NCBI RefSeq assembly: GCF_902713615.1
Contig: NC_052157.1
Span: 61,220,146 to 61,284,145 of the forward strand
Reading direction: 5' to 3'
Source of the DNA: Scyliorhinus canicula
Lineage: Eukaryota
DNA: 64,000 bases
A model generated the notes under the pieces. That model was not told where the DNA came from, did not search any database, and saw nothing but the letters and a program-made list of their open reading frames with translations. A program made the translations under genes and the position numbers. The stretch's first letter is position 1. Each line of letters begins with the position of its first letter. This document shows, piece after piece, positions 3,309-48,231 of this stretch.

Positions 3309-6300
3309 TGCACGCGAGACGAGTTGCTGTACAAAAGTTAGGCTTTAATAAGCTAGATGTTAGCCCTGCGGTCGACTACATTAAATGGACGACCGCCGGG
3401 CGTACTGGGTATTTATACCTCGCCCTGGAGGTGGGATTAACTCAGCCTCTCGACCAGTCGGGGAGCCGTCACATGACTGGTCTCAACCAATCGGTCGAGA
3501 GGCACATGACCAACCAGGGCCAATGGTAAGCCGGTGTTCTGCACCAATGGCAGGCAGCTATGTTAATCATACCACCACATTCACCCCTTGCGGAGAAAGA
3601 AGCTGGGGGGGGTATCAACAAGAGCTGGGGGGGGGGGGGAGAGAACTGGTGGTATGAGTAGCAGCCAGAGAAGGGAAAAAAAGGGTTTGGCTTCCCACTG
3701 GCCCAGACATTTAACAATAATACATATTGTCCATACAAGGTCCATGGTGTTGTTGAAAATTAAATGGACTCGATCAGCCTTTTCGTTGCCCGTGACGTCC
3801 TGGCAGACCGCCGCAGTGGAGTTGGTGACGTTGGTTCAGCTGATGGTGGTGGTTCCGCTGATGTCCTGGAGTCCGGGAGCGATGGTCCTTGAACTGTATC
3901 CGTCACCCGGGCTGGTGGTGGAGACGCCATGGATGGGGAAGGGGTGGCCTGGGTGGGGCGCTGGGGGAAACAAAACAGGAGGGGTCTGTGGTGAAGGGGG
4001 GGAAGGCCGCACGCCGGCAGGTGCCAGGTCCCGAGGGAGACCGTGTCCTGCCGACCGTCGGGGCACTCCACGTACGCATACTGCGGGTTAGCGTGGAGTA
4101 ACTGGACTTGTTCCACCAACGGGTCGGACTTGTGCACCCGCACATGCTTCCGGAGCAAGATGGGTCCGGGGGCGGCCAGCCACGTCGGGAGAGGGGATCC
4201 AGAGGACGACTTCCTGGGGAAAACAAGAAGACGTTCATGAGGTGTCTGATTTGTTGTGGGACAGAGGAGTGAGCGGATAGAATGTCGGGCATCGGGGATA
4301 ACCTCTTGCCATCGGGAAATAGGGAGATCTCTGGACTGGAGGGCCAGTAGTATGGTCTTCCAGATGGTACCATTCTCCCGCTCGACCTGTCCGTTACCCC
4401 GAGGGTTATAGATGGTCGTCCTGCTAGAGGCAATGCCCCTGTTGAGCAGGAATTGACGCAGCTCGTCGCTCATAAATGAGGACCCCCGATCGCTATGTAT
4501 GTATGCGGGGTAGCCGAACAGGGAGAAGATGGAGAGGAGGGCCTTAATGACGGTCGATGTGGTCATGTCGGGGCAGGGAATGGCGAAGGGGAAGCAGGTG
4601 TATTCGTCGATTACCGCCAGGAAGTAAATGTTGCGGTTGCTAGAGGGAAGGGGCCCCTTGAAGTCAATGCTGAGACGTTCGAAGGAGCGGGATGCTTTGA
4701 TCAGATGTGCGCGCTCGGGGCGGTAGAAGTGCGGTTTGCACTCTGCGCAGATGTGGCAGTCACGGGTTACTGTCCTGACTTCCTCGATGGAGAAAGGCAG
4801 GTTGCGGACCTTTATGATATGGTAGAAACGGGTCACCCCTGGATGGCAGAGGTTTGCGTGGAGGGAGCGGAGGCGGTCTATCTGCATGCTGGCACAGGTG
4901 CTGCGGGACATGGCATCAGGAAGCTCATTGAGCTTCCCAGGGCGATACAAGATATCGTAGTTGGACGTGGACAACTCGATCTGCCACCGTAAGATCTTGT
5001 CATTCTTAATCTTGCCCCTTTGTGGATTATCAAACATGAAGGCCATTGACCGTTGGTCTGTGAGGAGGGTAAACTTCCTGCTGGCCAAATAGTGCCTCCA
5101 ATGTCGCACAGCTTCGACTATGGCCTGGGCTTCCTTTTCCACAGAGGAGTGGCGGAGTTCAGAAGCCTGGAGGGTTCTGGAGAAGAAGGCCACGGGTCTG
5201 CCCGCTTGGTTCAGGGTGGCCGCCAGAGCTACTTCTGATGCTTCGCTCTCGACCTGGAAGGGGAGGGACTCGTCGATGGCGCGCATCGTGGCCTTTGCAA
5301 TGTCCACTTTGATGCGGATAAAGGCCTGGCAGGCCTCTGTTGACGGTGGGAAGGTCGTGGTTTGAATGAGGGGACGGGCCTTGTCGGCGAAATTGGGAAC
5401 CCATTGGGCGTAGTAGGCGAAGAAACCCAGGCAGCGTTTGAGGGATTTGTGGGTATTGGGGAGAGGGAGTTCCATCAGGGGGCGCATGCGTTCAGGGTCG
5501 GGGCCTATCACTCCGTTACGCACTACGTAGCCGAGGATGGCTAGACGGTCGGTGCTAAACACGCACTTATCCTTATTGTAAGTGAGGTTAAGGAGTTTTA
5601 CGGTTTGGAGACATTTCCGGATTGGTGTCATGGTCCTGCTGGTCGTGGCCGCAGATGGTGACATTATCGAGGTACGGGAAGGTAGCCCGTAATCCGTACT
5701 TGTCGACCATTCGGTCCATCTCCCGTTGGAAGACCGAGACCCCATTTGTGACACCAAATGGAACCCTAAGGAAGTGGTAGAGGCGGCCATCAGCTTCGAA
5801 CGTGGTGTACTTGCGGTCACTCGCGCGGAGGGGGAGCTGGTGGTAAGCGGACTTAAGGTCCACAGTGGAGAAGACTTAGTATTTCGCGATATCGTTTACC
5901 ATGGCGGAAATATGGGGGAGAGGATACGCGTCCAGTTGCGTAAACCGGTTGATGGTCTGGCTATAGTCGATGACCATCCGGTTTTTCTCCCCAGTCCGGA
6001 CCACCAGCACTTGGGCTCGCCAGGGACTGTTGCTGGACTCGATGACCCCTTCCTTCAGCAACCTCTGGACCTCGGACCTGATAAAGGTCCGGTCCTGGGC
6101 GCTGTACCGTCTGCTCCGTGTCTCGACGGGTTTGCAATCGGGGGTGAGATTAGCAAACAAGGAGGGGGGGTCCACTTTGAGGGACATGAGGCTGCAGACA
6201 GTGAGGGGGGGTATAGGGCCGCCGAATTGGAAGGTCAGGCTCTGCAGGTTGCGCTGGAAGTCCAGTCCTAGGAGTGCCGGTGCGCAAAGGTCAGGGAGGA

Positions 6301-8100
6301 CAAGAAGTTTGTAATTTTTAAAAACCTTCCCTTGGACCGTGAGGTCCGCGATGCAGCAGCAGGTGAAGCGGACGGAGTGCGAACCTGAGGCTAACCCGAT
6401 TTTATGTTTTACAGGATGGACAGGGAGCACGCAGCGTCTTACCGTGGCAGGGTGAACAAAGCTTTCCGTGCTCCCGGAGTCCAGCAGGCAGCCCGTCTCG
6501 TGGCCGTTGAGGTGGACCAGCGTTGTTGTTTTGGCGAGCGTGCGTGGCCGTGACTGGTCGAGTTGAATGGCCGCGAGCCGTGGAGAAGAACCATCATCGT
6601 AGTCGTCGTTGTACTAGTAGGTGCTGGCAGAAACATGCATGCCAGTCCAGGATGGTTGTGCCCAGGATCTGCACGTAGAGTCGGGGCCCCAAGATGGCGG
6701 CGCCCAGGACCCGCAAGTGGCGTCCGGAGCCCAAGATGGCGGCGCCTGCGGGGCCCTCATGGTTGCTGGGGGCGGGGTTAGCGGTGCCGGTGGGCCGATC
6801 GGGGCGGCAGAGAGGCGCGCAGGCCGGGCGCTGGGGCCCGGGGGCGGGGGGGAGAGATTTGCACGGTGCGCTGGAAGGGCCCGGAAGGGCCCGGAGGAGA
6901 GGAAGAGGTGCGCACGCCAGGCGCAGGGGCCCGGGGGCGGGGGGAGAGATTGGCGCGGTGTGCTGGAAGAGCCCGCAAGGGCCCGGAGGGGGGGATCCCC
7001 GGTCGCTGCGCGGTACAGCAGCGACCAATTTGGCCTGGCAGACCGTCGAGAAGTGGTCCTTCTTCCCGCAGCTCTTACAGAGGGCGGAGCGGGCCGGGCA
7101 GCGCGGGCGAGGGTGTTTCGCGAACCCACAGAAATAGCAGCGGGGCCCCGCGGACTTGTCGGGGCGTCCCGCGGCGCAGGCCTGAGGGGGGTCGGGAGCG
7201 GCGGATGGCGGTGGGGAAGCGTGCCAGGAGGCCCAGGGTGGTGCAGCGCGGCTGGGGACATAGACGCGGGCGTTTAAATCGGCGACCTCCAGGGAGCTGG
7301 AGAGAGTCCGTGCCTCAGTTAGGCTGAGGTCGTCTTTCTCCAGCATCCACTGGCGGATAGCGGCAGACTGCATCCCAGCCACGTAAGCATCTCTAATCAG
7401 AAGTTCCATGTGCTCCGTAGCTGAAACTGGGAGGCAGGAGCAATTCCTCCCCAGGACAGCGAGGGCCTGGTAAAAATCGTCTAATGACTCACCGGGGAGC
7501 TGTTGTCTGGTAGCCAGCAGATGTCGGGCGAATACTCTGTTTACCGGTTTAAGAAACTGTCCTTTCAGCTTATCCATGGCCGCGTCGTAATCTTTTTCCT
7601 CCGCAATCATCGCGTAGGCCGCCATGCCCACGCTGGAGTGGAGGATATGAAGCTTCTGTGCCATGGTGGGGGGGCTGTTTGCGGATGCCAGGTAACCATC
7701 GAAACATGCCAGCCAATGTTTAATGATTTCTGAAGCGTTCTGAGTTGGCGGGCTGATGCGGAAGCATTCGGGCTTGATCCGGAGCTCCATCTTCAAAATT
7801 CTAGCTTATTAAATTGATGTACCATCAATTGAACGCGAGATGAGTTGCTGTACAAAAGTTAGGCTTTAATAAGCTAGATGTTAGCCCTGCGGTCGACTAC
7901 AGTAAATGGACGACCGCCGGGCGTACTGGGTATTTATACCTCATCCTGGAGGCGGGGTTAACGCAGCCTCTCGACCAATCGGGGAGCCGTCACATGACTG
8001 GTCTCAACCAATCGGTCGAGAGGCACATGACCAACCAGGGCCAATGGTAAGCCGGTGTTCTGCACCAATGGCAGGCAGCTATGTTAATCATACCACCACA
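3309..8100 (-). mobile_element. Ty3/Gypsy LTR retrotransposon 1 (4.8 kb, decayed); LTRs 3309-3579 and 7830-8100
   Basis: Two 271-bp TG...CA direct repeats differing at 9 positions, a PPT (caaggggtgaa on minus) abutting the 3' LTR, and gag-PR-RT-RH-IN order. Confidence 0.95.
3760..7790 (-). pseudogene. gag-pol of element 1 (two CCHC knuckles, protease LLDSGS ~6473-6490, RT, RNase H, integrase HHCC/DDE); disrupted
   Basis: ORFs 6594-7796, 5876-6430, 5588-5863 and 3760-5820. In-frame TAA at 5876-5878, a frameshift near 5625, and further frameshifts in late gag and the IN C-terminus. Confidence 0.92.
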
Positions 8101-10770: not shown

Positions 10771-11924
10771 GACAGTTCAGCGCTTAACATGGCAAATCAC
10801 CGAACCTGCACATCTTTGTTTGTGGAGATGAGACCCATGCAGAGAGGGGGAGAAGTGCAAACTCAATCGGGACAGTGACCAGGGGCCGGGATCGAACCCG
10901 GTGTTCTTGAAAATACAAAAAAATGTGTCATTTGAAACATGGAAGTCTGGCAATATCTGGTCTGAGATGATACAGGGAAAGATCCCACAAAAGGTTAATG
11001 GCAGCTGCAAAGAGCAGGATTATAAAATGCAGATTCTTTCTCACAAGCAGGCTTAGCAAACACACAGGTTTCATGTATTAAGCTAAAACAATGGCTCACA
11101 CCTTTATTGAAAGTAAATATCTTAGGAAGAATCTGGAAAAGCATGGATGAGAGTTTCAATTGAATTAAATGACGAATGTTTAAAGCAGGCAGGTCTTTCA
11201 AGTCATAACTGTGTTGTTCCTCGTGTCTTAATAAAGCTCGCAGTCTCAAGTGTGGAGAAGATGCTTTATTGTGGGTTCGTTCAGTTTCCAGAGCTCGACC
11301 TAGAACTACCTTCCAGTGCTAACTACCAGCTTTGCTTGCTGTGTGTCCTGCTTACCAGCCCCCCTGCTGTGAAGAGTGTGTCCTCACTTCCTGTCCTGAT
11401 GTATTTGTATGGCTCTCCCGTGCTCCCTCTAGTGGTCGCTCAGTTGTGTTGCATCTGGTTAACTTGTGATCACCACATCCCCCTTTTTCTCTTAACATAT
11501 TTTCTGAACATCGTTAAAGAAAATTGTATATCCTGTCCCAGTGTATTTATAGCTCTCCCGCTCGTGTTTGCTCTGTTGTTTTTGTATCTGGTCAATCTAC
11601 GATCACCACATCCCCCTCTTTCTCATTACATAGTTTCTGTACATCATTAAGGAAAATTATACAAAACAGTAACTTATGATATGCGTATCTATACAAGTGA
11701 TGATGCTATTGCCTTGGTTAACAAAGCCAATGTATTTATATGTCCAAACTTAATAAACACATTTATGAGTCCAAACTTGATGAATGTGTTCAGAGCTTTT
11801 TTTTTTTTTTTTTGTTTTGTTGTTGATGACGTGGTGATATTGATATTGCAAGTCCGCTGTGAGTGTTGTTGGTGTTCCTTGTTATCTTAAGTACCCAATG
11901 CGTCATCCCGAGGTGTTTGCATGG

Positions 11925-14900
11925 TCACATCACTGATGTTGACTGGCATGGACTTTTTTTTTTTTTTTTTTTGTGCTTGTGGTGTTGATTTATTGTCTCA
12001 TCCGCCTTGGATGCTGGTGTGCTTGCTTGTTCTGGAGCAGACGTGAGTTTGTGCGATTCGTTGTCATCCCATGACATGTTTGTAGTCTTGTTATCGTTTT
12101 GCAGTGTGCTGTGGCATCGTCCATCATGTGCCAAGTAGTGCCATTGTGTACAAGTCGTTGTTTCATTGCTGTTGTTTCTGTCGTTCCTGTTTTTGTTGTT
12201 TCCGTTGCCGTACTTGTCGCTGTTTTTGTCGTTTCCGTCTTTGTTGTTGTCGCTATCTTTGCTCCTGACTTTGTTGTGTTTGTTGCCATTCTTGTTGTTT
12301 CTGCCTCTGTCGTTGTCGCTATCTTTGTGCCTGACGTTGTTGTTTGTCTTGTTGCGCTTCATGTTGCTTTTATTCTTGCTGTTGTCGTTCTCGTTTCTGC
12401 TGTGCTTCTTGCTATTGTTGTTTGTCTTGTCGCGCTTCATGTTGCTTTTCTTCTTGCTGTTGTCGTTCTCGTTTCTGCTGTGCTTCTTGCTATTGTTGTT
12501 GGTCTTGTCGCGCTTCATGTTGTTTTTGTTCTTGCTGTGTTTCTTTTGACTTTTGTTTTTCTTGTTATACTCTATGAGTGTCCCGAGTGGATAATTTGAG
12601 TCATTGAGCATTCCGTCTCGCGAGTGGTGCGAATGATCTGATGTTGCATCGGTGCAGGTGACATCAATCAGTTGTGGAGAATTGGATTCCGCATCTTTGC
12701 TTTCTTGGTGCTCGTCTTCCGGAGTCAAAGTCTTCTTGATTACATTTGACGCGGTGTCTGTGGACTCTCGGCGCTCCTCTTCTGGAGTCCAAATCTGCAT
12801 GATTTCAGTTGACGTGGTTTCTCTAGACTCTTGGTGCTCCGCTTCTGGAGTTAAAATCTTCATGATTTCTGTTGATGTTATCTCACTGGACTCCAGGTGC
12901 TCCTCTTCTGGAGTCAAAATCTGCATGTTTTCTTTCTGTTTGATGTCTCTGGACTCCAGGTGCTCCTCTTCTGGAGTCAGAATCTGCATGGTTTCTTTCG
13001 GCATTGTCTCTGTGGACTCCAGGTGCTCCTCTTCTGGAGTCAAAATCTGCATGTTTTCTTTTGGCATTGTCTCTCTGGGCTCCAGGTGCTCCTCTTCTGG
13101 AGTCAAAATCTGCATGTTTTCTTTCGGCATCGTCTCTCTGGACTGTTGGGTGGCCCGACTCTGTGCTTCTGTACAGACAAGCTGAGAACTGTCAGTCTCA
13201 CTGTGATCCTGTACGTCGAGTGCGAGCACCTTGTCACTGTTTTCGCTCTGTGCTTCGGTACAGACAAGCTGAGAACTGTCAGTCTCACTGTGATCCTGTA
13301 CGTCGAGTGCGAGCACCTTGTCACTGTTTTCGCTCTGTGCTTCGGTACAGACAAGCTGAGAACTGTCAGTCTCACTGTGATCCTGTACGTTGAGTGTGAT
13401 CACCTTGTCACTGTCTTCGCATGCAGTGGGCAGAGGTGCATTGTCTTCTTCTTGTTCCTGTGAGCGTGTTGGACTTTCATAGTCGGCTCTTTCTTCTTGT
13501 TCCTGTGAGCGTGTTGGACTTTCATAGTCCGCTCTTTCTTCTTGTTCCTGTGAGCTTGGTAGACTTTCATAGTCTGCTTGCGGTTGCTCAGGTACAGCGG
13601 GTTTACCTTCATGGTCTTGTTCATGCTTGGTGTCCGCCCGGGAGTGTTTGCTTGCATCCCTGTTGGCGTCTTTCATCACTCGCACTGTGGAGCCTGTCAT
13701 CGCTCGCTCCGTGGAGTCTTCCTGTGCTCTCTGTGTGGCGTCGTCTTCGTCTTGGGTATTGCTGTCATCCAATGTATCGACGAGCTGCCATGGCACCATG
13801 GTGTTGGATTCATCCACCATGAGTAGAGTCGTGTTGAGCTTTGCAACGGTGTCGCTGATGCTGTGATCAGCATGTCCAAATAACTCCTCCATGTCTGAGT
13901 AGTATTCTTTGAAACCCATTTCATCTTCGTTGGCTTCTTCTACCACGAGTTGATTCGTGTTGAACTTTGCGACCGTGTCGCTGATGCTGTGATAAGCATA
14001 TCCGACTGACTCAGCTGTGTCTGAGTAGTATTCTCCGAAAACCAAATCATCCTGGTTGGATTCTTCTACCACGAGTTGATTCGTGTTGAACTTTGCGACC
14101 GTGTCGCTGATGCTGTGATAAGCATATCCGACTGACCCAGTCAGGTCTGAGAGGTAATCGTCGAAAAACAAATCATCTTTTGTTGTTTCGGAATTCTTTT
14201 TGTTCGCTTCACTGTGTGTGGCGAAGGCAGCTTTTTCCAAGGTTTTGTGCAAGTTGTTTTTCACTGTTGGTTTAAGTTCAGGCGTTTTTCTGTGTTCTGA
14301 GGCAAGAAAATTTGGTTTTACCACTTTAAGTGTCTTGTTTTCAATTTTCGGGCATTTCCCTTTTAAGTGGGCGTGGTCAGGATTCTCAGACGTCATGACG
14401 TCACGCGTAGGAACGACTTGCACATGCGCAAATCGGCTTTCTTGCCTTGTGCGGTTCGGTGTCCATTGCGCATGCGCGGCTTGCGCATGCGCATGACGGT
14501 CCGCGACGAAGACTTTTTTTGACTGCGCATGCGCGGCTTGCGCATGCGCATAACGATCCGCGACGCGATCTTTTGTAAACTGCGCATGCGCGACTTCCGG
14601 TTCCGGCGCATGCGCGACTTCCGGTTCCGGCGCATGCGCAACTTCCGGTTCCGGCGCATGCGCAGACGCGATTTGTAGTTCTTTGCTTACCAGAGACTGC
14701 AAAATGTGCTCCGACGCCATTTTATCGCGGATTTCAGCGTTTTTTCTTTCTAAAAGTTGTAAGTTACCTTTTCTTTCCGATCTGGACTGGATTTCAGCGT
14801 TTTGGCTTTGTGAAAAATTCATGTTATTTCTTCTTTTTGATCTGTACTGTGCATTCGCGATTTCCTGATCTTTTTGTGATTTTTTAAGTTTTGCATCACT

Positions 14901-15326
14901 CAGTCTCTCTGCAGTTTGGACTGTGAGCATGCCTTGCTGTTCAAATTTCTCACAGTACTCTTCAAATTTGTTTAGTAACGTTTGTAAGCTGTTCCTGTCT
15001 TCACCTTTTGAGTGTTTAAATCCATTATACACTTTCTTATTGACAGGCCCTTCGATGAGAATTGCTATTTTAATTTTGTCTGAGGCGTCTGCTACATCAT
15101 TAGCTATGAGATAAAAATCGAACATTTGTTTGAATCTTTTCCAGACATTTATTACATTACCAGTCGTGTCCAGCTGAGGTGGGTATCCATGCCACATCCT
15201 CGAATTAGCGACGTCTTCCCAAGTCAAATGTCCAGCAGGAGATCTCCATGCCATTCTTGGTTGAGATTTCCATGCCATGTTTTTTTTTTTTTGTTTTCTG
15301 TATCTGCAGCTGAGTTGTCCTGTCAT
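11925..15326 (-). CDS. Intact 1133-aa Gag-derived, repeat-rich, probably disordered protein of element 3 (no PR/RT/RH/IN)
   Basis: Uninterrupted ORF. The N-terminal ~130 aa resemble a Gypsy Gag N-domain, with a degenerate knuckle AHLKGKCP. Internal repeats of 8, 42, 15, 29, 20 and 26 aa, and a Lys-rich C-terminus. Confidence 0.8.
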   Translation of the reverse strand: MTGQLSCRYRKQKKKNMAWKSQPRMAWRSPAGHLTWEDVANSRMWHGYPPQLDTTGNVINVWKRFKQMFDFYLIANDVADASDKIKIAILIEGPVNKKVYNGFKHSKGEDRNSLQTLLNKFEEYCEKFEQQGMLTVQTAERLSDAKLKKSQKDQEIANAQYRSKRRNNMNFSQSQNAEIQSRSERKGNLQLLERKNAEIRDKMASEHILQSLVSKELQIASAHAPEPEVAHAPEPEVAHAPEPEVAHAQFTKDRVADRYAHAQAAHAQSKKVFVADRHAHAQAAHAQWTPNRTRQESRFAHVQVVPTRDVMTSENPDHAHLKGKCPKIENKTLKVVKPNFLASEHRKTPELKPTVKNNLHKTLEKAAFATHSEANKKNSETTKDDLFFDDYLSDLTGSVGYAYHSISDTVAKFNTNQLVVEESNQDDLVFGEYYSDTAESVGYAYHSISDTVAKFNTNQLVVEEANEDEMGFKEYYSDMEELFGHADHSISDTVAKLNTTLLMVDESNTMVPWQLVDTLDDSNTQDEDDATQRAQEDSTERAMTGSTVRVMKDANRDASKHSRADTKHEQDHEGKPAVPEQPQADYESLPSSQEQEERADYESPTRSQEQEERADYESPTRSQEQEEDNAPLPTACEDSDKVITLNVQDHSETDSSQLVCTEAQSENSDKVLALDVQDHSETDSSQLVCTEAQSENSDKVLALDVQDHSETDSSQLVCTEAQSRATQQSRETMPKENMQILTPEEEHLEPRETMPKENMQILTPEEEHLESTETMPKETMQILTPEEEHLESRDIKQKENMQILTPEEEHLESSEITSTEIMKILTPEAEHQESRETTSTEIMQIWTPEEERRESTDTASNVIKKTLTPEDEHQESKDAESNSPQLIDVTCTDATSDHSHHSRDGMLNDSNYPLGTLIEYNKKNKSQKKHSKNKNNMKRDKTNNNSKKHSRNENDNSKKKSNMKRDKTNNNSKKHSRNENDNSKNKSNMKRNKTNNNVRHKDSDNDRGRNNKNGNKHNKVRSKDSDNNKDGNDKNSDKYGNGNNKNRNDRNNSNETTTCTQWHYLAHDGRCHSTLQNDNKTTNMSWDDNESHKLTSAPEQASTPASKADETINQHHKHKKKKKKSPCQSTSVM
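14387..14663. promoter_or_regulatory. Cluster of NRF1-like (8x GCGCATGCGC), ETS/GABPA-like (3x ACTTCCGG) and CRE (TGACGTCA) motifs inside the element-3 ORF
   Basis: Motifs counted directly in the sequence; function untested. Confidence 0.45.
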
Positions 15327-18164
15327 AAGCGTCTGAAATCACTCCTAGGTACCATGTGTTGTTCCTCGTGTCTTAATAAAGCTCGCAGTCTCAAGTGTGG
15401 AGAAGATGCTTTATTGTGGGTTCGTTCAGTTTCCAGAGCTCGACCTAGAACTACCTTCCAGTGCTAACTACCAGCTTTGCTTGCTGTGTGTCCTGCTTAC
15501 CAGCCCCCCTGCTGTGAAGAGTGTGTCCTCACTTAGACCATGTGTTGTTCCTCGTGTCTTAATAAAGCTCGCAGTCTCAAGTGTGGAGAAGATGCTTTAT
15601 TGTGGGTTCGTTCAGTTTCCAGAGCTCGACCTAGAACTACCTTCCAGTGCTAACTACCAGCTTTGCTTGCTGTGTGTCCTGCTTACCAGCCCCCCTGCTG
15701 TGAAGAGTGTGTCCTCACTTCCTGTCCTGATGTATTTGTATGGCTCTCCCGTGCTCCCTCTAGTGGTCGCTCAGTTGTGTTGCATCTGGTTAACTTGTGA
15801 TCACCACAATAACCAAGTGAAATTTTAGCATACAGCTAAAAGCAAAGTTTCACACCTTAATTGAAATAAACTCTCTTAGTAAACAGATGGAAAGGATGGA
15901 TGATGCTCAGTCGAATTTGGTGTCAATTCTAAGTGTAAAATTCTACTAACATCAAGTCAATTAAAAGAAAATTGGAGACGACCTGTCTACGAGAGACATA
16001 ATTTAAAGTCAAAGTCAAAGGCAAAGTTATGAGCTGGGGACAATTGGAAAATTAAACGATTAGAAATCACAGAAATAAAAGTAACACCTATTGAAACTAA
16101 AGCATTTTTAAATCAGATCGGAGAGGTAACGTTATGCCCAAAATGAATAATTAGTTGTAGTAAAATGTTTACATCAAAGATACTTTTTAACAATCAAAGT
16201 GAAACAAGCTCATTTACAATAAAGTCGTTAAAACTTAATAACTCTTCGAAAGAGAATATAAACCCGAAGAAAGGGGACAGCCAGCAGAGCCAGAGCCAGT
16301 TCTCACAGCTTGGTACATGGGAAGGATAGGACACAGCAACCGAGTTCACCAGCGAATACATCTCAAGAAGACCAGACTTTAAAGAAGATTGATTGTCAAG
16401 GTGGGCCTGAAGGTCCCTTCAACCAACCAGCAGGATCCAGAAGCAAGATCTTTTTATCTTTCTGTTAAGAAAGTGTTTACAGCTTTAAAAAAAAATTATA
16501 ATAATAAAATAACTTAAAAGTTTTAACCTGAAACAGTGGTTATTAGCCTACTTTACTTACTTAACAACGCAGGACCCAGGACATCGATGCTACTAAGGGG
16601 GAAGTAGGTAAAATTCTTCGGTGAAGGTATGGGTTATACCGGGAGATACCTTGAAAATATAGTTTGACCTGAATAGCACCCACCGAAGCCTGCATCGGAG
16701 TCAGGGAGTGAGAACCCCTGTTCACCATTTAGAATATCGACCCTTTTTTGGTATAGGGGGAATTCTAAGAATAGTGGTGAGTTTTAACTTCACCGGGTCC
16801 TCAGCATTGCGAGGCAGCAGTGTTAACAATGCACCACCATGCCGCCCAGCAGCTCCCTCTATACTACTGTGACAGTGTAGCACTCCTTCAGTACTGACCC
16901 TCTGACAGTGGTGCGCTCCCGCAGTACTGACCCTCTGACAGCGCAGCACTCCCTCAGTACTGACCGTCCGGCAGTGCAGAACTCCCTCAGTACTGACTCT
17001 CCGACAGTGCAGTCCCTCCTCAGTACTGACCCTCCAAGAGTGTAGTGGTCCCTCCGTCCTGACCCTTTGACTTTGCAGCACTCCCTCAGTACTGACCCTC
17101 TGACAGTGCAGCACTCCCTCAGTACTGACCCTCTGACAGTGCAGCACTCCCTCAGTACTGACCCTCTGACAGTGCAGCACTCCCTCAGTACTGACCCTCT
17201 GACAGTGCAGCACTCCCTCAGTACTGACCCTCTGACAGTGCAGCACTCCCTCAGAACTGACCCTCTGAAAATGCAGCACTCCCTCAGTACTGACCCTCTG
17301 ACAGTGCAGTGCTCCCTCAGTACTGACCTTCTGACAGTGCAGCACTCCCTCAGTACTGACCCTCTGACAGTGCAGCACTCCCTCAGTACTGACCCTCTGA
17401 CAGTGCAGCACTCCCTCTGTACTGACCGTCCGGTAGTGCAGAACTCCCTCAGTACTGACTCTCCGACAGTGCAGTCCCTCCTCAGTACTGACCCTCCAAG
17501 AGTGTAGTGGTCCCTCCGTCCTGACCCTTTGACTTTGCAGCATTCCCTCAGTACTGACCCTCTGACAGTGCAGCACTCCCTCAGTACTGACCCTCTGACA
17601 GTGCAGCACTCCCTCAGTACTGACCCTCTGACAGTGCAGCACTCCCTCAGTACTGACCCTCTGACAGTGCAGCACTCCCTCAGTACTGACCCTCTGACAG
17701 TGCAGCACTCCCTCAGAACTGACCCTCTGAAAATGCAGCACTCCCTCAGTACTGAACCTCTGACAGTGCAGTGCTCCCTCAGTACTGACCTTCTGACAGT
17801 GCAGCACTCCCTCAGTACAGACCCTCCAAGAGTGCAGTGCTCCCTCCGTCCTGACCCTTTGACTTTGCAGCACTCCCTCAGTACTGATTCTCTGACAGTG
17901 CAGCACTCCCTCAGTAGTGACCCTCTGACAGTGCTGCTTTCCCTCAGAACTGACCCTCTGACAATGCAGCACCCTCTCAATACTGACTTTCCGACAGTGC
18001 AGCACTCCCTCAGTACTGACCCTCTGACAGTGCAGCACTCCCTCAGTACTGACCCTCTGACATTGCAGCGACCCCTCTGTACTGACCCTCTGACAGTGCA
18101 GCACTCCCTCAGTACTGACCCTCTGACAGTGCAGTACTCCCTCAGTACTATTACATACTAAGAC

Positions 18165-21100
18165 TATTACACTAAGATGTGTGGCCTACTACAGGAGCTG
18201 GCGTAATGGCTGCTGTGCGGGGAGCACACATATTTATACTCCGTCTACTGGGCTGAGCCAGTAGGCAGGGACTACCCCCGTACCTGTAGTACAGGGCCTT
18301 ACCACACATCTTCTCATATATACATCAGTGGTGACTACCACATTTACCCCTTGTTAAAATTGAGTCCGCTGGGGGTGATGGAGATCTATATACAGCACAA
18401 GTTTTAATATACAGAGGTCGCGAACCAATTACAGGTTTAGTTGGTCCGGAGCCTTGATCTGGCGCAGTGGTGGCGGCGATTCTGGCGTCTGTTTTGTCCT
18501 TGGTGACTCCGGGAGCGTGCCGAAATCCTCTTCATCCTCGGGCGTGGGCAGGGGGAGGATGGATGGTCCTGGGGGGTTGCTACTGGGTGCGCCTGGGAAG
18601 GGGAGAGAGGCGCCGGGCCGGAGGCGTGTGTGTGTGGAACCTGCTGGTGCCAGGTCCCTGAGGGAGACAGTATCTTCGCGGCTGTCGGGGCACGCTACGT
18701 AGGCATACTGGGGGTTAGCGTGGAGTAACTGCACCCTCGCCACCAACGGGTCCGCCTTGTGGAGTCGTACGTGCTTACGGAGGAGTACGGGTCCTGGAGC
18801 TGTGAGCCAAGTTGGGAGCGACACCCCCGTATGTGGAATTCCTTGGGAAGGCAAAGAGACGTTCATGGGGTGTGTCGTTAGTCGCAGTGCACAGGAGCGA
18901 CCAAATGGAGTGCAGTGCATCGGGGAGGACCTCCTGCCTGCAGGAGGCTGGGAGATTTCTGGACTGTAGGGCCAGCTGGACGGCCCTCCAGACTGTCACG
19001 TTCCCCCTCTCCACCTGCCCGTTTCCCCGGGGTTTATACCAGGTCGTCCTGCTCGAGGTGATACCCTTGCTGAGCAGGAACTGACGCAGCTCATCGCTCA
19101 TGAATGAGGATCCCCTGTCGCTGTGGACGTAGGCGGGGAAGCCGAACAGAGTGAAGATGGTGTTGAGGGCTTTGATGACGGTGGCAGACGTCATGTCAGG
19201 GCTTGGGATGGAGAAGGGGAATCTGGAGTACTCATTGACCACACTGAGGAAATAAGTGTTACGGTCGGTGGAGGGGAGGGGCCCTTTGAAGTCCACGCTG
19301 AGGCGTTAAAAAGGGGCGGGAGGCCTTCACCAGGCGTGCACGGTCTGGCTGGTAGAAGTGCAGTTTGCACTCCGCACAGACATGGCAGTCTCTGGTGATT
19401 GCCCGTAGTTCCTCGACAGAGTAGGGCAGATTGCGGGCCTTGATGAAGTGGTACAAACGTGTGACTCCCGGGTGACAAAGGTTGTCGTGCAGAGTCCGGA
19501 GTCAGTCCACAAGTGCGCTGGCACATGCACCTCGGGATAGGTCATCTGGGGGCTCGTTGAGCTTCCCTGGGCGATACAAAATCTCGTAGTTGTAGGTGGA
19601 CAGCTCGATCCTCCACCTCAAGATTTTATCGTTTTTGATCTTGCCCCGTTGTGTGTTGTTGAACATGAAGGCTACCGACCGTTGGCCAGTGAGGAGAGTA
19701 AATCTCCTGCCAGCCAGGTAATGCCTCCAATGCCGCACAGTTTCAACGATGGCTTGGGCCTCTTTTTCGACAGAGGAGTGCTGAATTTCGGAGGCATGAA
19801 GAGTTCATGAAAAGAATGCCAGGGGCCTGCCTGCCTGGTTGAGGGTGGCGGCTAGAGCGACGTCTGATGAGTCGCTCTCCATTTGAAAAGGTAACGTTTC
19901 GTCGACTGCGTGCATCGCGGCCTTGGCGACGTCAGCCCTAATACAGTTGAAGGCCTGGTGAGCCTTGGCCGTCAAGGGGAAAAGAGTGGATTGGATGAAT
20001 GGGCGGGCCTTGTCCGCATAATTGGGGACCTACTGGGCGTAGTAAGAAAAAAATCCCAGGCAGCATTTGAGGGCCTTGGGGCAGTGGGTGTTCCATGAGG
20101 GGGCTCATGCGATCGGGGTCGGGCCCCAGAACTCCGTTCTGGAGCACATAGCCGAGTTGGTTAAGCAGTTCGTGCTGAACACGCACTTCTCCTTGTTATA
20201 AGTGAGGTTGAGGAGAGTGGCAGTGTGGAGAAATTTGGCACTGTTGACATCATGGTCCTGCTGATCATGGCCGCAGATGGTGACATAATCTAGGTATGGG
20301 AAAGTGGCCTGCAGCCCGTACCGGTCGACCATTCGGTCCATCTCCCATTGGAAGAGCGGGACCCCGTTGGTGACGCCGAAGGGAACCCTAAGAAAATGGT
20401 AGAGGCAGCCATCTGCCTAGAAGGCAGTGTATGGGCGGTCCGCCTTACGGATGGGGAGCTGGTGGAAGGCGGATTTTAGGTCCACAAATGAGAAGACCCC
20501 GTACTGTGCAATCTGATTGACCATATCAGATATGCGTGGGAGGGGGTACGCATCGAGCTGCGTGTACCGATTGATGGTCTGGCTGTAGTCCACGACCCTT
20601 CGGTGTTTCTCCCCAGTTTTCACCACCACCACTTGAGCTCCGCAGGGGCTGTTGCTGGCCTCGATGATGCCTTCCCGAAGCAGCCGTTGGACCTCGGACC
20701 TGATGAAGGTCCCGTCCTGGGCACTGTACCATCTGCTCCTGGTGGCGACGGGTTTGCAATCCGGGGTTAGGTTTGCGAATAGGGAAGGGTCGACCTTCAT
20801 GGTCGCGAGGCCGCACACAGTGAGGGGTGGTAGGGGCCAGCCGAATTACAGTGTTCGGCTCTGGAGGTTACGCTGGATGTCCAGGCCGAGTAGCAGGGCA
20901 GCGCAGAGGTTGGGGAGGATGTAGAGGCGGAAGCCGCTGAATTCTATGCCCTGGACCATGAGCGTGGCTATACAGCACCCCCGGATCGCCACGGAGTGGG
21001 ACCCGGAGGCCTGGGAGATTCTCTGATTGGCGGGGTGTACCGCGAGGGAGAAGAGCCTTACCGTATTGGGACGGATGAAGCTTTCGGTGCTCCCGGAGCC

Positions 21101-22573
21101 CAGCAGACAGGCGATCTCGTGCCCATTGATCTTCACGGTTGTCGAGGCGGTGGCTACATTCTGCGGGCGACACTGGTCAATCGTGACCGAGGCGAGTCGC
21201 GGCTGGTCGTCGCTGGTGTCGGACGATGGGCCCGGGTCCTGGTACGATGGTGGTGCCCATGTGCCATGGGGGAGACAAGATGGCAGCGCCTGATGATGCT
21301 GAGGAGGACAAGATGGCGGCGCCCACGGGCCGCACGTGGCGGGGGTTGAACAAGATGGCGCCGCCCATGGACCGCAAGTGGTCCGAGGCGGGGAAGATGG
21401 CGGCGCCCACTGGCCGTGCGTGGTCCAAGGAGGAGAAGATGGCGCCGCCCACTGGCCGTGCGTGGTCTGAGGAGGGAAAGATGGCAGCACCCACTGTTCG
21501 TACGCCGGGGGGGGGGGGGGGGGGGGGGGGGTCGGAGCGATAGTGGCGACTGAGCGGGCCTGGCACACCGCAGCGAAGTGCCCCTTCTTGCCGCAGGCCT
21601 TGCAAAGGGCCCTGCATGCCAGGCATCGTTGACAGGGGTGTTTTTGTTGCCCACAGAAGTAACATCTGGGGCCCCCAGAGTTTGCTGGCTGGCGTGTGAT
21701 ACAGGCGTAGGATTGGCTGAGTGTGGTCCCCGGTGGGGTGGCCGTCTGCGGAGGCCACGATGCGTAGGAGGAGTGGGCCATGCGGGCGGGGGTGTTGGCC
21801 TGGATATTGAACAAGGTGACCATCATCAATAGCGCCAGCTTTTTGGTCGCCGCGGGGTCGAGCGTGGCCTCCTCTACAAGTCGCAGGTGATGTGGTCTGA
21901 CCCTATCCCCGTAACGAAAGTGACCCGCATGAGGCACCTCGAATGTTCCGTGGCCGGGACGGCCTGACAGTCACAGTCTCTGACCAGGGGAATTAAAGCA
22001 CGCCAGAAACCTTCTACGGACTCACCAGGGGGTTGACTATGAGTGGAGAGGATGTGTCTGGCAAAGAGCCTGTTCGTCCGCTGGGCGTAGTTCTCTTTCA
22101 GTAGCGCCATGGCTTCATCGTAGGTCGGCGCGTCCTGGATAAGCGGAAAAACGCTGGAGCTCAGCTGCTTGTAGAGGATCTGGATCTTCTGAGCTTCCGG
22201 AATTGGTCCTGGTGCAGACCTGATGTAAGCTTCGAAACAAGCTTGTCAATGTTCAAAGGCCTTTTTGGCGTTGCTTGATTGCAGATCCAGCTGCAGGCGA
22301 TTCGGCTTGATGTGGAGGTCCATCTTCTGAAAACTTTAGTATAATAAATTCATGCACGATCAATTGCACAAAGACGAGAGTTGAATACAACTGAGGCTTT
22401 ATTGCTCTAAAATTGTGCCTTCCTACAGCAGGTGGTGAAATGGCTGCTGTACTGGGAGCACACATATTTATACTCCACCTACTGGGCGGAGTCAGCAGGC
22501 AGGAAGTACCGTACCTGTAGTACAGGGCCTTACCACACATCTCCTAATATACACATCAGTGGTGACTACCACA
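18165..22573 (-). mobile_element. Ty3/Gypsy LTR retrotransposon 2 (same clade as element 1, more decayed); LTRs ~18165-18342 (truncated) and 22365-22573
   Basis: LTR copies roughly 85-90% similar, PPT next to the 3' LTR, and gag (ATG 22323)-PR-RT-RH-IN fragments with many stops and frameshifts. Inserted in the 33-bp array; no clear TSD. Confidence 0.92.
18429..22323 (-). pseudogene. Disrupted gag-pol of element 2
   Basis: ORF fragments: CCHC knuckles and protease-like LLGSGS (20846-21937), RT (20417-20818, 20105-20341), RNase H (19502-19738) and integrase DFKGP/SDRG/GQVE (18775-19296). Confidence 0.9.
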
Positions 22574-25500
22574 TTCCCTCAGTACTGACTCTTCGACAGT
22601 GCAGCACTCCCTCAGTACTAACCCTCTGACAGTGCTGCATCCCTTAGTACTGACACTTTAAGATTGAAGCGGTCCCTCAGTACTGACCCTCTGACAGCGC
22701 AGTGCCTCCTCAGCACTGTCCCTCCAAGAGTGCAGTGCTCCCTCAGCATTGGCCCTCTGACAGTGCAGCACTCCCTCACTACTGACCGTCTGACGTTGCA
22801 GCACTCCCTCAATACTGACCCTCTGTCATTGAAGCACTCCCTCAGTACCGACCCTCTGACAGTGCAGCACTCACTCAGTACTGACCCTCTGACAGTGCAG
22901 CGCTCCCTCAGTACTGGCCCTCTGACAGTGCAGCACTCCCTCAGAGCTGACCCTCTGAGTGTAGCACTCCCTCAGTACTGACCCTCTGACATTGCAGCAC
23001 TCCCTCAGTATTGACCCTCTGACAGTGCAGCACTCCCTCAGTACTGACCCCTCTGACAGTGCAGCACTCGCTCAGTACTGACCCTCTGACAGTGCAGCGC
23101 TCCCTCAGTACTGGCCCTCTGACAGTGCAGCACTCCCTCAGAGCTGACCCTCTGACAGTGCAGCACTCCCTCAGTACTGACCCTCTGACATTGCAGCACT
23201 CCCTCAGTACTGACCCTCTGACAGTGCAGCAGTCCCTCAGTACTGACCCTCTAACAGTGCTGCACTCCCTCAGTACTGACCCTCTGACAGTGCAGCACTC
23301 TCTCGATGCTGACCCTCTGACAGTGCAGCACTCCCTCAGTACTGACCCTCTGGCAGTAGAGAGCTCCTTCAGTACTGATCCTCCTGTACAGCACTCCCTC
23401 AGTATAGATCCTCTGACAGTGCAGCACTCCCTCAGTACGGACCCTCAACAGTGCAGCACTCCCTCAATGCTGACCCTCCGAAAATGCAGCACTCCCTCAG
23501 TTCTGACACTCTGGCCGTGCAGTACTCCTTCAGTGCTGACTCTTTAGAACTGACCCTCCGAATGTACAGCCTTCCCTCAGTACTGACCCTTAGACAATAC
23601 AGCGCTCCCTCAGTACTGTCCCTCTGACAATTCAACACTCCCTCAGTACTGACCCTCTGATCGTGCATCACTCCCTCAGCACGGACCCTCGACAGTGCAG
23701 CGCTCCCTCAGTACGGACCCTCAACAGTGCAGCACTCCCACAATACGAACCCTCATCAGTGCAGCACTCCCTCAGTATGAACCCTCTGACAGTGCAGCAC
23801 TCCCTCAGTACTGACCCTCTGACATTGCAGCACTCCCTCAGTACTGACCCTCTGACAGTGCAGCACTCCCTCAGTACTGACCCTCTGACAGTGCAGCACT
23901 CACTCAGTACTGACCCTCTGACAGTGCAGCGCTCCCTCAGTACTGGCCCTCTGACAGTGCAGCACTCCCTCAGTACTGACCCTCTGACGGTGCAGCACTC
24001 CCTCAATACTGACCCTCTGACAGTGCAGCCCTCCCTCAGTACTGACCCTCTGACAGTGCAGCACTCCCTCAGTACTGACCCTCTGACAGTGCAGCACTCC
24101 CTCAGTACTGACCCTCTGACTGTGCAGCACTCCCTCAGTACTGACCCTCTGACAGTGCAGCACTCCCTCAGTACTGACCCTGTGACAGTGCAGCACTCCC
24201 TCAGTACTGATCCTCTGACAGGGCAGCACTCCCTCAGTACTGACCCTCTGACAGTGCAGCACTCCCTCAGTACTGACCCTCTGACAGTGCAGCACTCCCT
24301 CAGTACTGACCCTCTGACAGTGCAGCACTCCCTCAGTACTGACCCTCTGACTGTGCAGCACTCCCTCAGTACTGACCCTCTGACAATTCAGCACTCCCTC
24401 AGTACTGACCCTGTGACAGTGCAGCACTCCCTCAGTACTGATCCTCTGACAGGGCAGCACTCCCTCAGTACTGACCCTCTGACAGTGCAGCACTCCCTCA
24501 GTACTGACCCTCTGACAGTGCAGCACACCCTCAGTACTGACCCTCTGACAGTGCAGCACTCCCTCAGTACTGACCCTCTGACAGTGCAGCACTCCCTCAG
24601 TACTGACCCTCTGACTGTGCAGCACTCCCTCAGTACTGACCCTCTGACAATTCAGCACTCCCTCAGTACTGACCCTGTGACAGTGCAGCACTCCCTCAGT
24701 ACTGATCCTCTGACAGGGCAGCACTCCCTCAGTACTGACCCTCTGACAGTGCAGCACTCCCTCAGTACTGACCCTCTGACAGTGCAGCACACCCTCAGTA
24801 CTGACCCTCTGACAGTGCAGCACTCCCTCAGTACTGACCCTCTGACAGTGCAGCACTCCCTCTGCCCTTCTTTTCTTCTTTGAAGAATATTGAATACTTA
24901 ATTTGTTTTTTTCAACTAAGGGGCAATTTGACATGGCAAATCACCTAACCTGCACATCTTTGGTTGTGGGGGTAAGACCCATGCAGCCATGCGGAAAAGT
25001 GCAAACTCCACAAGGACAGTAACCAGGGGCTGGGATCGAACCCACGTCCTCAGCGCTGTGAGGCAGCAGTGCTAACAATGTGCCACCATGGCGCCCAGCC
25101 ACCTCCTCTGCACTGCTCCGACAGTGCAGCACTCCCTCAGAACTGGCCCTCCAATTGTGCTGCACTCCAACAGTACTGACCCTCTGAAATCAGAGCACCA
25201 TCTCAGTGCTGACCCTCTGACAGTGCAGCACTCCATCCGTACAGACGCTCAGACAGTGCAGCACTCCCTCAGTACTGACCCTCCGACAGTGCAGCACTCC
25301 CTCAGTACTGACCCTCTGACAGTGCAGCACTCCCTCAGTACTGACCCTCTGACAGTGCAGCACTCTCTCGGTGCTGACCCTCTGACAGTGCAGCACTCCC
25401 TCAGTACCGTCCCTCTGACAGGGCAGCACTCCCTCAGTACTGACCCTCTGACAGTGCAGCACTCCCTCAGTACTGACCCTCTGTCAGTGCAGCACTCTCT

Positions 25501-26603
25501 CAGTACTGACCCTCTGGCGTAGAGAGCTCCTTCAGTACTGATCCTCCTGTACAGCACTCCCTCAGTATAGATCCCCTGACAGTGCAGTGCTCCCTCAGTA
25601 CTGACCCTCTGACAGTGCAGCTCTCCCTCAATGCTGACCCTCCAAAAATGCAGCACTCCCTCAGTACTGACACTCTGGCCGTGCAGTACTCCTTCAGTGC
25701 TGACTCTATAGAACTGACCCTCCGAAGGTACAGCCTTCCCTCAGTACTGACCCTTAGACAATACAGCGCTCCCTCAGTACTGTCCCTCTGACAGTGCAGC
25801 ACTCCCTCAGTACTGACCCTCTGACAATGCAGCACTCCCTCAGTACTGACCCTCTGATCATGCATCACTCCCTCAGCACGGACCCGCGACAGTGCAGCAC
25901 TCCCTCAGCACTGATCCTCCAATAGTGCAGTGCTCCCTCAGTACGGACCCTCAACAGTGCAGCACGCCCTCAGTACTGACCCTCTGACAGTGCAGTGCTC
26001 CCTCAGCACTGATCCTCCAATAGTGCAGTGCTCCCTCAGTACGGACCCTCAACAGTGCAGCACGCCCTCAGTACTGATCCTCTGACAGTGCAGCACTCCC
26101 TCGGTATGAACCCTCAACTGTGCAGCGCTCCGTCAGTACTGACCCTCCGTCAGTGCTACACTCCCTCAGTACTGACCCTCTGACAGTGCAGCACTTACTC
26201 AGTACTGACCCTCTGACAGTGCACCCCTTCTCAGTACCGACCCTCAACAGTGCAGCACTCCCTCAGTACGGACCTTCAACAGTGCAGCACTCCCTCAGTA
26301 CGGACCTTCAACAGTGCAGCACTCCCTCAGTACGGACCTTCAACAGTGCAGCACTCCCTCAGTCCGGACCCTCAACAGTGCAGCACTCTCTCATGCAGAG
26401 ACCAGCACATTGTCAGTCCCAACTGGACTGTACTTTGTAAGCCGTTCCCTTCCATAGGTAGACTTTTTGTGACCGTGGAATAAATCAAAATTCGCCCGAC
26501 TACTCCATGAGCTTCCTGGGTTTTCATAGGTTTCTGAATCCCCTGTGTATAATGTTCATCTTTTTCTTTAATTTGGATTTAATTAACCTTGGCAAAAACT
26601 GAC

Positions 26604-39300: not shown

Positions 39301-40319
39301 CCCCAATCCTATCCACATCCCTCCAATCCTGTCCATGTTTCCCCAATCCTGTCCACATTTCCCCAATCCTGTCCACATTTCCCCAATCCTGTCCACATCT
39401 CCCCAATCGTGTCCACATCTCCCAATCCTGTCCCCATTTTCCCAATCCTGTCCACATCACCCCTATCCTGCCCCATCGCCCCAATCCTGCTCACATCACT
39501 CCAATCCTGTCCACATCTCCCCAATCCTGCCCCATCTCCCCAATCCTGCCCCATCTCCCCAATCCTGTCTAAATCTCCACAATCCTGTCCACATCTCCCC
39601 AATCCGGCCCCATCTCCTCAATCCTGTCCACATCTCCCCAATCCTGTCCACATCCCTCCAATCCTGTCCACATCTCCCCAATCCTGTCCACATTTCCCCA
39701 ATCCTGTCCACATCTCCCCACTCGTGTCCACATCTCCCAATCCTGTACACATCTTCCCAATCCTGTCCCGCATCACCCCAATCCTGCCCCATCGCCCCAA
39801 TCCTGCCCCATCTCCCCAATCCTGTCCACAGCACCACAATCCTGTCCACATCTCCCCAATCCTGCCCCATCTCCCCAATCCTATCCACATCTCCCCAATC
39901 CTGTCCACATTTCCCCAATCCTGTCCACATTTCCCCAATCCTGTCCACATCTCCCCAATCCTTCCACATCTCCCCAATCCTGTCCACATCACCCCAATCC
40001 TGTCCACATCTCCCCAATCGTGTCCACATCTCCCCAATCCTGCCCCATCTCCCTAATCCTGTCCACATCTCCCCAATCATGTCAACATCTCCCCAATCCT
40101 GTCCACATCACTCCAATCCTGTCCACATCACCCCATCCTGCCACATCCCCCACATCCAGCCCCATCTACCCAATCCTGCCCACATCTGGCCCCATTGCCC
40201 CAATCCTGTCCACATCTCCCCAATCGTGTCCACATCTCCCCAACCTGTCCACATCTCCCCAATCCTGTCCACGTCTCCCCAATCCTGTCCACATCACTCC
40301 AATCCTGTCCACATCACTT

Positions 40320-40645
40320 GGCAGCACGGTAGCATGGTGGTTAGCATAAATGCTTCACAGTTCCAGGGTCCCAGGTTCGATTCCCGGCTGGGTCACTGTC
40401 TGTGTGGAGTCTGCACGTCCTCCCCGTGTGTGCGTGGGTTTCCTCCGGGTTCTCCGGTTTCCTCCCACAGTCCAAAGATGTGCGGGTTAGGTGGATTGGC
40501 CATGCTAAATTGCCCTTAGTATTGGGTGGGGTTACTGGGTTACGGGTATAGGGTGGATACGTGGGTTTGAGTAGGGTGATCATTGCTCGCCACAACATCG
40601 AGGGCCGAAGGGCCTGTTCTGTGCTGTACTGTTCTATGTTCTATG
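40320..40645 (+). mobile_element. V-SINE (HE1-like)
   Basis: Head, V-domain and (tgttcta)n tail. Confidence 0.85.
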
Positions 40646-40988
40646 TAATCCTGGCCACATCTCCCCAATCCTGGCCACATCTCCCCAATCCTGTCCACAT
40701 CTCCCCAATCCTGCCCCATCTCCCCAATCCTGCCCCATGTCCCCAATCCTGTCCACATCTCCCCAATCCTGTCCACATCTGCCCAATCCAGCCCCATCTC
40801 TCCAATCCTGTCCAGATCTCCCCAATCCTGTCCACATCACCCCAATCCTGCCCCATCTCCCCAATCCAGCCCCATCTCCCCAATCCTGTCCACATCCCCC
40901 CCAATCCTGTCCACATCACTCCAATCCTGTCCACATCTCCCCAATCCTGTCCACATCACCCCAATCCTGTCAACATCACCCCAATCAA

Positions 40989-41341
40989 CATAGAATCATA
41001 GAATTTAAAGTGCAGAAGGAGGCCATTTGGCCCATCGAGTCAGCACCGGCTCTTGGAACGAGCACCCTACCCAAGGTCAACACCTCCACCCTATCCCCAT
41101 AACCCAGTAACCCCACCCAACACTAAGGGCAATTTTGGACACTAAGGGCAATTTATCATGGCCAATCCACCTAACCTGCATATCTTTGGACTGTGGGAGG
41201 AAATCGGAGCACCCGGAGGAAACCCACGCACACACGTGGAGGATGTGCAGACTCTGCACAGACAGTGACCCAAGCCGGAATCGAACCTGGGACCTTGGAG
41301 CTGTGAAGCGAGTGTGCTATCCACAATGCTACCGTGCTGCC
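40989..41341 (-). mobile_element. V-SINE (HE1-like), inverted relative to 40320-40645
   Basis: Reverse complement of the 28940/29839 copies. Confidence 0.85.
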
Positions 41342-48074: not shown

Positions 48075-48231
48075 CCTCTGACAGTACTGCGCTCCCTCAT
48101 CACTGACCCTCCAACAGTGCAGCACTCTCTTAGTACATGTCTTCCAACAGTGCCGCACTCCCTCAGTACTGACCCTCTGACAGTGCAGTACTTATGCTGT
48201 TTGAGTTTGTGTGGAATGAACTAGGACTTAC

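Follow-up and report, generated by a model that had tools for sequence, protein, structure and literature searches.

A pol-less Ty3/Gypsy-derived retrotransposon family of Scyliorhinus canicula with a selected open frame and weakly constrained amino acids

The stretch of Scyliorhinus canicula DNA analyzed here (64,000 nucleotides of contig NC_052157.1, hereafter the window) contains a long terminal repeat (LTR) retrotransposon that occupies the minus strand from 11210 to 15808 and carries one long open reading frame (ORF) and no pol gene. An earlier note on this sequence took the frame-preserving expansion of the ORF as a sign of selection on the protein. Comparison of sampled copies shows that the family separates two signals, with premature stops purged and amino acids barely constrained. 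The open frame is selected, and in cis; selection on the protein is weak.

The element and its copies

The features of the element are listed in Table 1. Its basic structure is as the earlier note described: the paired 268-bp LTRs have 0 mismatches, the same 5-bp target-site duplication (TSD) lies on both sides (ATAAC), a primer-binding site (PBS) and a polypurine tract (PPT) are present, and the single pol-less ORF of 1133 amino acids (aa) matched 0 Pfam families, as did its first third and the Gag of an older relative, family C. The PBS begins with TGGTACC at 15354 on the minus strand and is complementary to tRNA-Leu(TAA) genes of the same genome. The TATA-like box reads TACAAATA in the window copy, a form found in 8 of 101 copies, and TATAAATA in 82 of 101. 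The five other frames of the ORF region hold 30-66 stops apiece. Repeat filler makes up about 85% of the ORF, with tandem periods of 24, 45, 57, 60, 63, 78, 87 and 126 bp, every one a multiple of three; the periods of 24, 126, 45, 87, 60 and 78 bp had been reported correctly, while the seven 63-bp units and the 57-bp array had been missed. The intact 1133-aa frame with its KKKKKK end, also reported, is real in the window copy, but two A-runs of variable length happen to give it both its length and its tail. Of 54 copies, 32 lack the upstream ATG, which depends on a variable A-run, and of the 22 that have it only 12 carry it in frame; the conserved start is therefore M17 (15278), which gives 1117 aa. 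The last A-run is likewise variable and produces three different tails, in 18, 15 and 6 of the 39 intact copies.

Missing from the earlier picture were the relic PPT with its old LTR start (11531-11661) and an additional exact copy of 180 bp from the inner part of the LTR (15355-15534) within a 186-bp tandem duplication. The extra copy is private to the window copy among 61 loci compared and looks like the product of an aberrant strand transfer in reverse transcription. The duplicated piece (15355-15540) stands behind four bases of the PBS. An interpretation of the 180 bp as exactly R-U5 gave only a rough fit, with a start 20 nt past the TATA box. The element is inserted into an older repeat, and an empty-site joint seen in contigs from sequence runs was rejected as a polymorphism, as it could derive from other copies of that host repeat.

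Table 1. Features of the element in the window (whole-stretch positions) and loci of its candidate helper
Feature	Position	Strand	Remarks
Left TSD	11205..11209	.	5 bp, ATAAC
3' LTR	11210..11477	-	268 bp, TG...CA; poly(A) signal at LTR position 208
PPT	11478..11488	-	adjoins 3' LTR; same as in autonomous family H
Relic PPT duplicate and LTR start	11531..11661	-	used by older subfamily B; 76% to 11389-11528
Conserved ORF	11925..15278	-	1117 aa from M17
ORF of window copy	11925..15326	-	1133 aa; 16 extra codons from upstream ATG at 15326
A-run of variable length	11954..11972	-	source of lysine tail and three alternative C-termini
Asn/Lys-rich basic block	12147..12569	-	78-bp repeats; net charge about +21
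Acidic block	12537..14210	-	net charge -86
Arrays composing the acidic block			126-bp x3 (old Gag-protease linker), 45-bp x3, 87-bp x3, 63-bp x7
Relics of both zinc knuckles	14298..14399	-	first retains His and last Cys; second without any Cys
24-bp and 57-bp arrays	14396..14663	.	CpG-rich motif cluster
Gag capsid domain, first (N-terminal) lobe	14943..15188	-	residues 47-128
PBS	15337..15354	-	degenerate match to tRNA-Leu(TAA)
Extra LTR piece	15355..15540	-	exact copy of LTR positions 89-268 after 6-nt junction TGGTCT
5' LTR	15541..15808	-	268 bp; TATA-like box at LTR 69-76
Right TSD	15809..15813	.	5 bp
Family H loci	L345-L362, L307, L313		for example L349:705-4865

The genome (4.2 Gb) holds 991 exact LTR-PBS junctions, which is a lower bound on copy number because variant junctions exist. 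We sampled 60 loci picked by likeness to the window copy and, as the unbiased set, 60 from among the first matching places on contig 1, and parsed 101 two-LTR elements including the window copy, from 55 of 61 loci in the likeness set and 46 of 60 in the unbiased set; six single-LTR loci were left out of the former, and 14 with no second LTR or with unparsed ends out of the latter. A perfect 5-bp TSD flanks 94 of the 101, and no match to pol was found between the LTRs of the sampled copies. The elements fall into class A1 (n = 77, 0.35 LTR mismatches on average, median internal length 3870), class A2 (n = 11, 2.6 mismatches, 3660) and class B (n = 13, 6.7 mismatches, 2911), with some A1/A2 mosaics of the kind that template switching would produce. 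The frame is open to its end in 37 of 77 A1, 2 of 11 A2 and 0 of 13 B copies (9 of 46 in the unbiased set), so that 62 of the 101 sampled copies persist in the genome broken. Identical LTRs are no guarantee of an intact frame: 28 of the 53 A1 copies that have them are broken. The cause is mostly a one-base slip in an A-run (24 of 40 broken A1 copies).

At C2:87874389-87885780, four LTR-PBS junctions lie within 12 kb, three of them spaced about 3.7 kb apart, which is probably a tandem array of the element, judging from this spacing. Of 24 listed sequence runs, 18 hold 68-80% of the words of the element, but the RNA origin of these runs is guessed or unlabelled and they were not used as evidence. 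Contigs from sequence runs cover element, helper and repeated flanks alike and were not used as evidence of expression.

Selection on the frame and on the amino acids

Variants common to several copies went through replication while private ones mostly did not, a distinction earlier applied in work on endogenous retroviruses (PMC3128044). Across the 100 sister copies, stops make up none of the 513 codon changes shared by at least three copies, in comparison with 26 of 918 private changes (Fisher p=1e-5) and with 29 of 494 and 36 of 476 shared changes read in two other sense frames (65/970, 6-8%; p=6e-13). Changes common to exactly two copies include four stops among 198. What looked like a shared stop in 11 copies turned out to be a codon with two base changes that encodes Glu. 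The purge of stops holds in the unbiased 46-copy set and in A2 and B alone, and weakly in A1 alone (p=0.03).

Insertions and deletions follow the same direction, with 46 shared clusters in frame and four out of frame in the ORF, as opposed to 5 and 18 in the 3' non-coding part and to 85 and 52 among private ORF indels. Shared +1 shifts do occur in A-runs, yet their carriers are nearest neighbours in only 0/3, 0/5, 0/3 and 2/6 cases, whereas those of a control in-frame 3-bp deletion are so in 8/10; the shared frameshifts are recurrent A-run slips. Large internal deletions are private without exception. Because broken copies persist in the genome yet found no clades in the sample, selection acts in cis. 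This evolutionary evidence shows that the open frame itself is selected.

The encoded amino acids present a different picture. The ratio of nonsynonymous to synonymous rates (dN/dS) is 0.85 for shared changes (396 nonsynonymous, N; 150 synonymous, S) and 1.09 for private changes (p=0.057), while net values between classes are 0.77-0.84. In the Gag capsid lobe the shared dN/dS is 0.88; the same method returned 0.17 and 0.15 for capsid lobes and 0.20 for pol in the family of element 4, an autonomous element in the window, and 0.17 for the pol of family H, the candidate helper described below. Shared changes in the lobe are no more conservative than private ones, and they fall on family-conserved positions in 7 of 46 cases versus 17 of 63 for private changes, which is only a trend (p=0.17). 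No charge constraint was detected in the Asn/Lys basic block, and the lysine tail is not conserved; these are the two parts with a potential for RNA binding. Constraint on the amino acids is thus weak (dN/dS about 0.7-0.85), and they drift almost freely.

Gag ancestry and the candidate helper

The ORF had 268 library protein matches, of which 150 were listed; in nearly all of these the alignment is confined to residues about 49-127. A Ty3/Gypsy origin is indicated by blastp to the Gag of family H over residues 49-358 (E=1e-20). In a three-way alignment with family C and an autonomous Gag, the first capsid lobe is intact, most of the second is deleted and both zinc knuckles are degenerate; the 126-bp repeat unit is the Gag-protease linker, and there homology to Gag stops. 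The earlier alignment of the knuckle to element 4 was correct, and the first knuckle has decayed as described, but the degeneration of the second and the loss of most of the second lobe had gone unremarked. With these parts missing, the family lacks the usable capsid and nucleocapsid that characterize the Gag of plant TR-GAG elements. Seven core residues of the lobe (W62, F65, K66, F69, A75, L90 and G93) are fixed across the three classes. An AlphaFold model has a four-helix lobe and one long helix (mean predicted local distance difference test score, pLDDT, 86), and its best structural match (VIA) is the Copia capsid 8vvw_A (Z 8.3, root-mean-square deviation 3.0, 78 aligned), barely above generic helices. 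Together, homologues, model and structural match point to the four-helix capsid fold. The predicted long helix (residues 114-223) resembles generic coiled coils only. Foldseek gave no match in the PDB at E<=0.001, a homology search with residues 30-345 gave none among proteins of 623-1983 aa, and Retrotrans_gag clusters in the ESM Atlas at 0.88 serve as a lead only.

Two older pol-less families carry homologous ORFs, so that the pol-less state is old and the window family derived. Family C (L183, L184, L203-L232) retains both lobes of the capsid and shares the cysteine-less knuckle and the acidic block of the window family, with no protease or RT (reverse transcriptase) match in 30 of 30 loci over the 1.5 kb checked past the capsid. 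Family D (L185, L304-L306, L315 and others) accounts for 13 of 40 loci at the PPT-LTR junction that it shares with the window family. Both families are large, and one family D copy (L315) has lost its capsid part and retains a 532-aa open frame.

Complete gag-pol was present in 3 of the 40 loci upstream of that shared junction, and these led to family H (172 exact junction matches), a young autonomous family of the kind that the earlier note had proposed to seek as a partner by LTR termini and PBS. We parsed 15 of 23 H loci, leaving out eight; their LTRs differ by 0-4 mismatches and their 5-bp TSDs match in 14. Eight loci have a single full gag-pol ORF of 1432-1435 codons in the order protease, RT, RNase H, integrase, for which the best solved relative in the PDB is Ty3 RT, and the internal length is about 4.4 kb. 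H and the window family have the PPT, the first 10 LTR bases and the primer site in common, while their LTRs are otherwise alike only in short words. Family H is thus an autonomous partner with the same PBS, PPT and LTR ends that was active at the same time, and it likely mobilizes the window family. Target junctions outnumber those of H by about 6 to 1 (991 versus 172), and the H capsid evolves about four times faster than H pol; this excess and the fast helper capsid are only hints of interference with the helper. Residues 47, 50 and 51 of the H capsid have several radical states.

Two other candidate helpers were rejected. The family of element 4 is older (copies 80-89% identical in protein to element 4) and has different LTR ends, and an 11-match family with a similar LTR end has degenerate Gags or consists of older members of the target family. 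Element 4 itself (43800-47972) is one of three decayed autonomous Gypsy-type elements in the window, the others being at 3760-7805 and 18429-21970, with protease, RT/RNase H or integrase domains. Elsewhere in the window, long arrays of 33-bp and 20-bp minisatellites (16870-26393, 33379-41786 and 50434-64000) yield spurious long ORFs, and an open V-set immunoglobulin-like exon, recognized by eye on the minus strand at 48230-48600, is presumably Siglec/CD22-like.

Explanations and comparison with known systems

The reading we favor, at a probability of roughly one half, is that the frame of this Ty3/Gypsy-derived pol-less family is held open in cis because its RNA needs to be translated to near its 3' end for survival and for packaging by a helper. 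The helper, likely family H, would supply RT, integrase and capsid, and the RNA would mimic the single long ORF of that helper. Viral defective-interfering (DI) RNAs reportedly need an open frame, going by two paper titles (van der Most 1995; Molenkamp 2000). In 38 of 39 intact copies translation ends 395-458 nt before the 3' LTR; a premature stop could leave as much as 3.6 kb untranslated on the 3' side, with nonsense-mediated decay or loss of ribosome cover as the result, and broken copies would thereby leave no offspring. A review describes such a case in Rous sarcoma virus, where a premature stop in gag cuts packaging via nonsense-mediated decay (PMC5035971). In-frame tandem duplication would then be the sole tolerated route to a longer RNA, and the median internal lengths of 2.9, 3.66 and 3.87 kb, from old to young, would trace growth toward the 4.4 kb of the helper. 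The filler stays mildly acidic and hydrophilic, which likely keeps the by-product soluble, and the capsid lobe may contribute some docking on helper particles.

Several observations weigh against a need for translation alone. Mini-Ty1 elements are described as mobile without coding (PMC4974528), so translation in cis is no general need. Most of the shared indels behind the 46:4 ratio are whole repeat units, whose length alone keeps them in frame, and small shared indels alone split 7 to 7; some A-run frameshifts may also be assembly errors. The amino acids are not entirely free either: N/S at the codon level is lower in shared than in private changes (ratio about 0.72, p=0.014). Within the acidic block, changes that remove negative charge are purged (relative rate 0.43, p=0.007), as are changes to hydrophobic residues (0.62, p=0.045); both values are uncorrected for 24 tests, and fourfold sites were too few to tell acidic constraint from an RNA-level purine bias. 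The high dN/dS of the lobe does not prove lost function, because the H capsid is also fast-changing (18 N/10 S shared versus 32/82 in H pol, p=7e-4), with no difference in N/S between H capsid and target lobe (p=0.33). Finally, the lobe is predicted to bind the H capsid with a score of 0.61, where the best of three controls reached 0.00.

These last points lead to a close competing explanation that we consider possible, if less probable, in which the protein is a hitch-hiking adaptor acting in cis: its lobe would co-assemble with helper Gag at a time when the nascent chain is still attached to, or binds, the RNA that encodes it. Bulk properties would account for the work of the acidic and basic blocks, and an arms race with the helper capsid for the fast change of the lobe. 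The co-assembling parasite Gag of the earlier note survives in this form through the predicted binding. In that prediction, runs agree in at least 97% of contacts, the partner pLDDT is 80 and alignments were not used; the mark is reached by 51 of 78 solved versus 2 of 108 mismatched pairs (in eukaryotes 39/65 versus 2/126), yet the pass may reflect likeness because the contact is lobe-to-lobe as in solved capsids. The preserved acidic charge and the seven fixed core residues also suit an adaptor, as does the greater variability of H positions at the predicted face (10 of 17 versus 21 of 73 in the rest of the lobe, p=0.025, post hoc). On the other side stand the absence of more than a trend in avoidance of family-conserved lobe positions, the lack of conservatism in the shared changes there and the death of both knuckles; and since the basic block and lysine tail are unconstrained, the C-terminus alone gives no reason for late stops to be purged. 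The need for translation and the docking protein can both be true.

The remaining explanations are much less probable. A product working in trans or in the host, by restriction of helper particles or as a condensate or chromatin protein, would suit the acidic and basic disordered blocks, and single-lobe capsid fragments such as Ty1 p22 are described as able to poison assembly (PMC4974528). A trans product would, however, let broken copies ride free and stops be inherited (by the logic of PMC3128044), and no inherited stop was found although most sampled copies are broken and persist. Since selection must act in cis, purely trans-acting interference and the condensate or chromatin roles that the earlier note had proposed are excluded as its cause; a trans role is accordingly disfavored as the origin of the open frame and improbable overall, while a side effect on the helper may still occur. 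It is more improbable still that the frame is open by luck, through few source copies and through the youth and codon-poor repeats that the earlier note had named as the outcome that would overturn its reading. The A1 copies are indeed very young and repeats make up much of the ORF, but youth fails to explain the open frame because only 37 of 77 young copies are intact. Moreover, 6-8% of the shared changes in the control frames of this DNA are stops, and those frames contain 37 and 66 stops. In the older pol-less sister families, sequence homologous to the ORF lies in the same frame. The stop test holds across classes up to 13% apart, and it refutes luck provided that the sample represents the family fairly. 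We give as little credit to selection of the arrays as DNA, in which the 24- and 57-bp units, for example, would serve as a promoter or enhancer inside the element. The region 14396-14663 contains 8 GCGCATGCGC, 3 ACTTCCGG and 1 TGACGTCA motifs, which we take to be NRF1-, ETS- and CRE-like, respectively, with putative binding. The eight GCGCATGCGC lie in 200 bp (nine in the whole window), where the observed/expected CpG ratio is 1.8 versus 0.38 window-wide, and the ETS-like motif is a novelty of the youngest copies (present in 74 of 77, versus 1 of 24 older ones). However, this would cover two arrays and not a stop purge along 3.3 kb.

A broader and more doubtful synthesis would make the family a long-running defective-interfering LTR lineage, in which the ORF itself acts in cis, in-frame filler mimics the helper mRNA, the lobe docks, the roughly 6:1 excess reflects interference and the helper capsid is in an arms race. 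The open frame required in cis, one property of such a lineage, is found here on evolutionary evidence.

When a non-autonomous LTR element carries a long ORF of unknown function, the usual reading is either a useful protein or a leftover. Should the open frame be what selection maintains here, protein function would not follow from an intact ORF, and RNA surveillance would be a force in shaping transposon architecture. The family of about a thousand copies, in which roughly half of the young members carry breaks at known positions, would then be a natural experiment on nonsense-mediated decay and on parasite-helper coevolution among retrotransposons. In the main text of the open-access literature, we found no retrotransposon described with an open frame kept and near-neutral amino-acid change; the family may already have a name, because repeat databases were outside this search.

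Among known systems, MaLR elements of mammals are abundant non-autonomous vertebrate LTR elements with one internal ORF and no pol. In this they resemble the target, but they are related to ERV-L and the target to Ty3/Gypsy. Going by titles only, coronavirus and arterivirus DI RNAs are helper-dependent with one open frame whose encoded sequence matters little, as may be so in the target; in contrast, these are RNA viruses that usually shrink, whereas the target is an integrated lineage that has grown by in-frame duplication over several bursts. Another comparable system is TR-GAG of plants, described as an LTR element under about 4-5 kb with a 5-bp TSD, PBS, PPT and one Gag-derived ORF, without pol and recently mobile (PMC4350172). 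No test of inherited stops is described in the abstract and Discussion of that paper. TR-GAG is interpreted as a supplier of working Gag, while the target is without the second capsid lobe and knuckles, has about 85% of its ORF as repeat filler and a near-neutral dN/dS, and lives in a vertebrate host. The wheat lineages RLG_Quinta/RLG_Cereba and RLG_Sabrina are reported as long-lived and non-autonomous, with Gag plus a domain of unknown function and with PBS, PPT and LTR termini common to an autonomous partner (PMC11302176, PMC9744471). These are read as mutualists that give Gag in trans, in contrast to the cis selection and incomplete Gag of the target, and target and helper LTRs are alike only in the first 10 nt and short words. 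The window family is a Gag-only passenger like TR-GAG, Quinta and Sabrina, minus the usable Gag that defines them.

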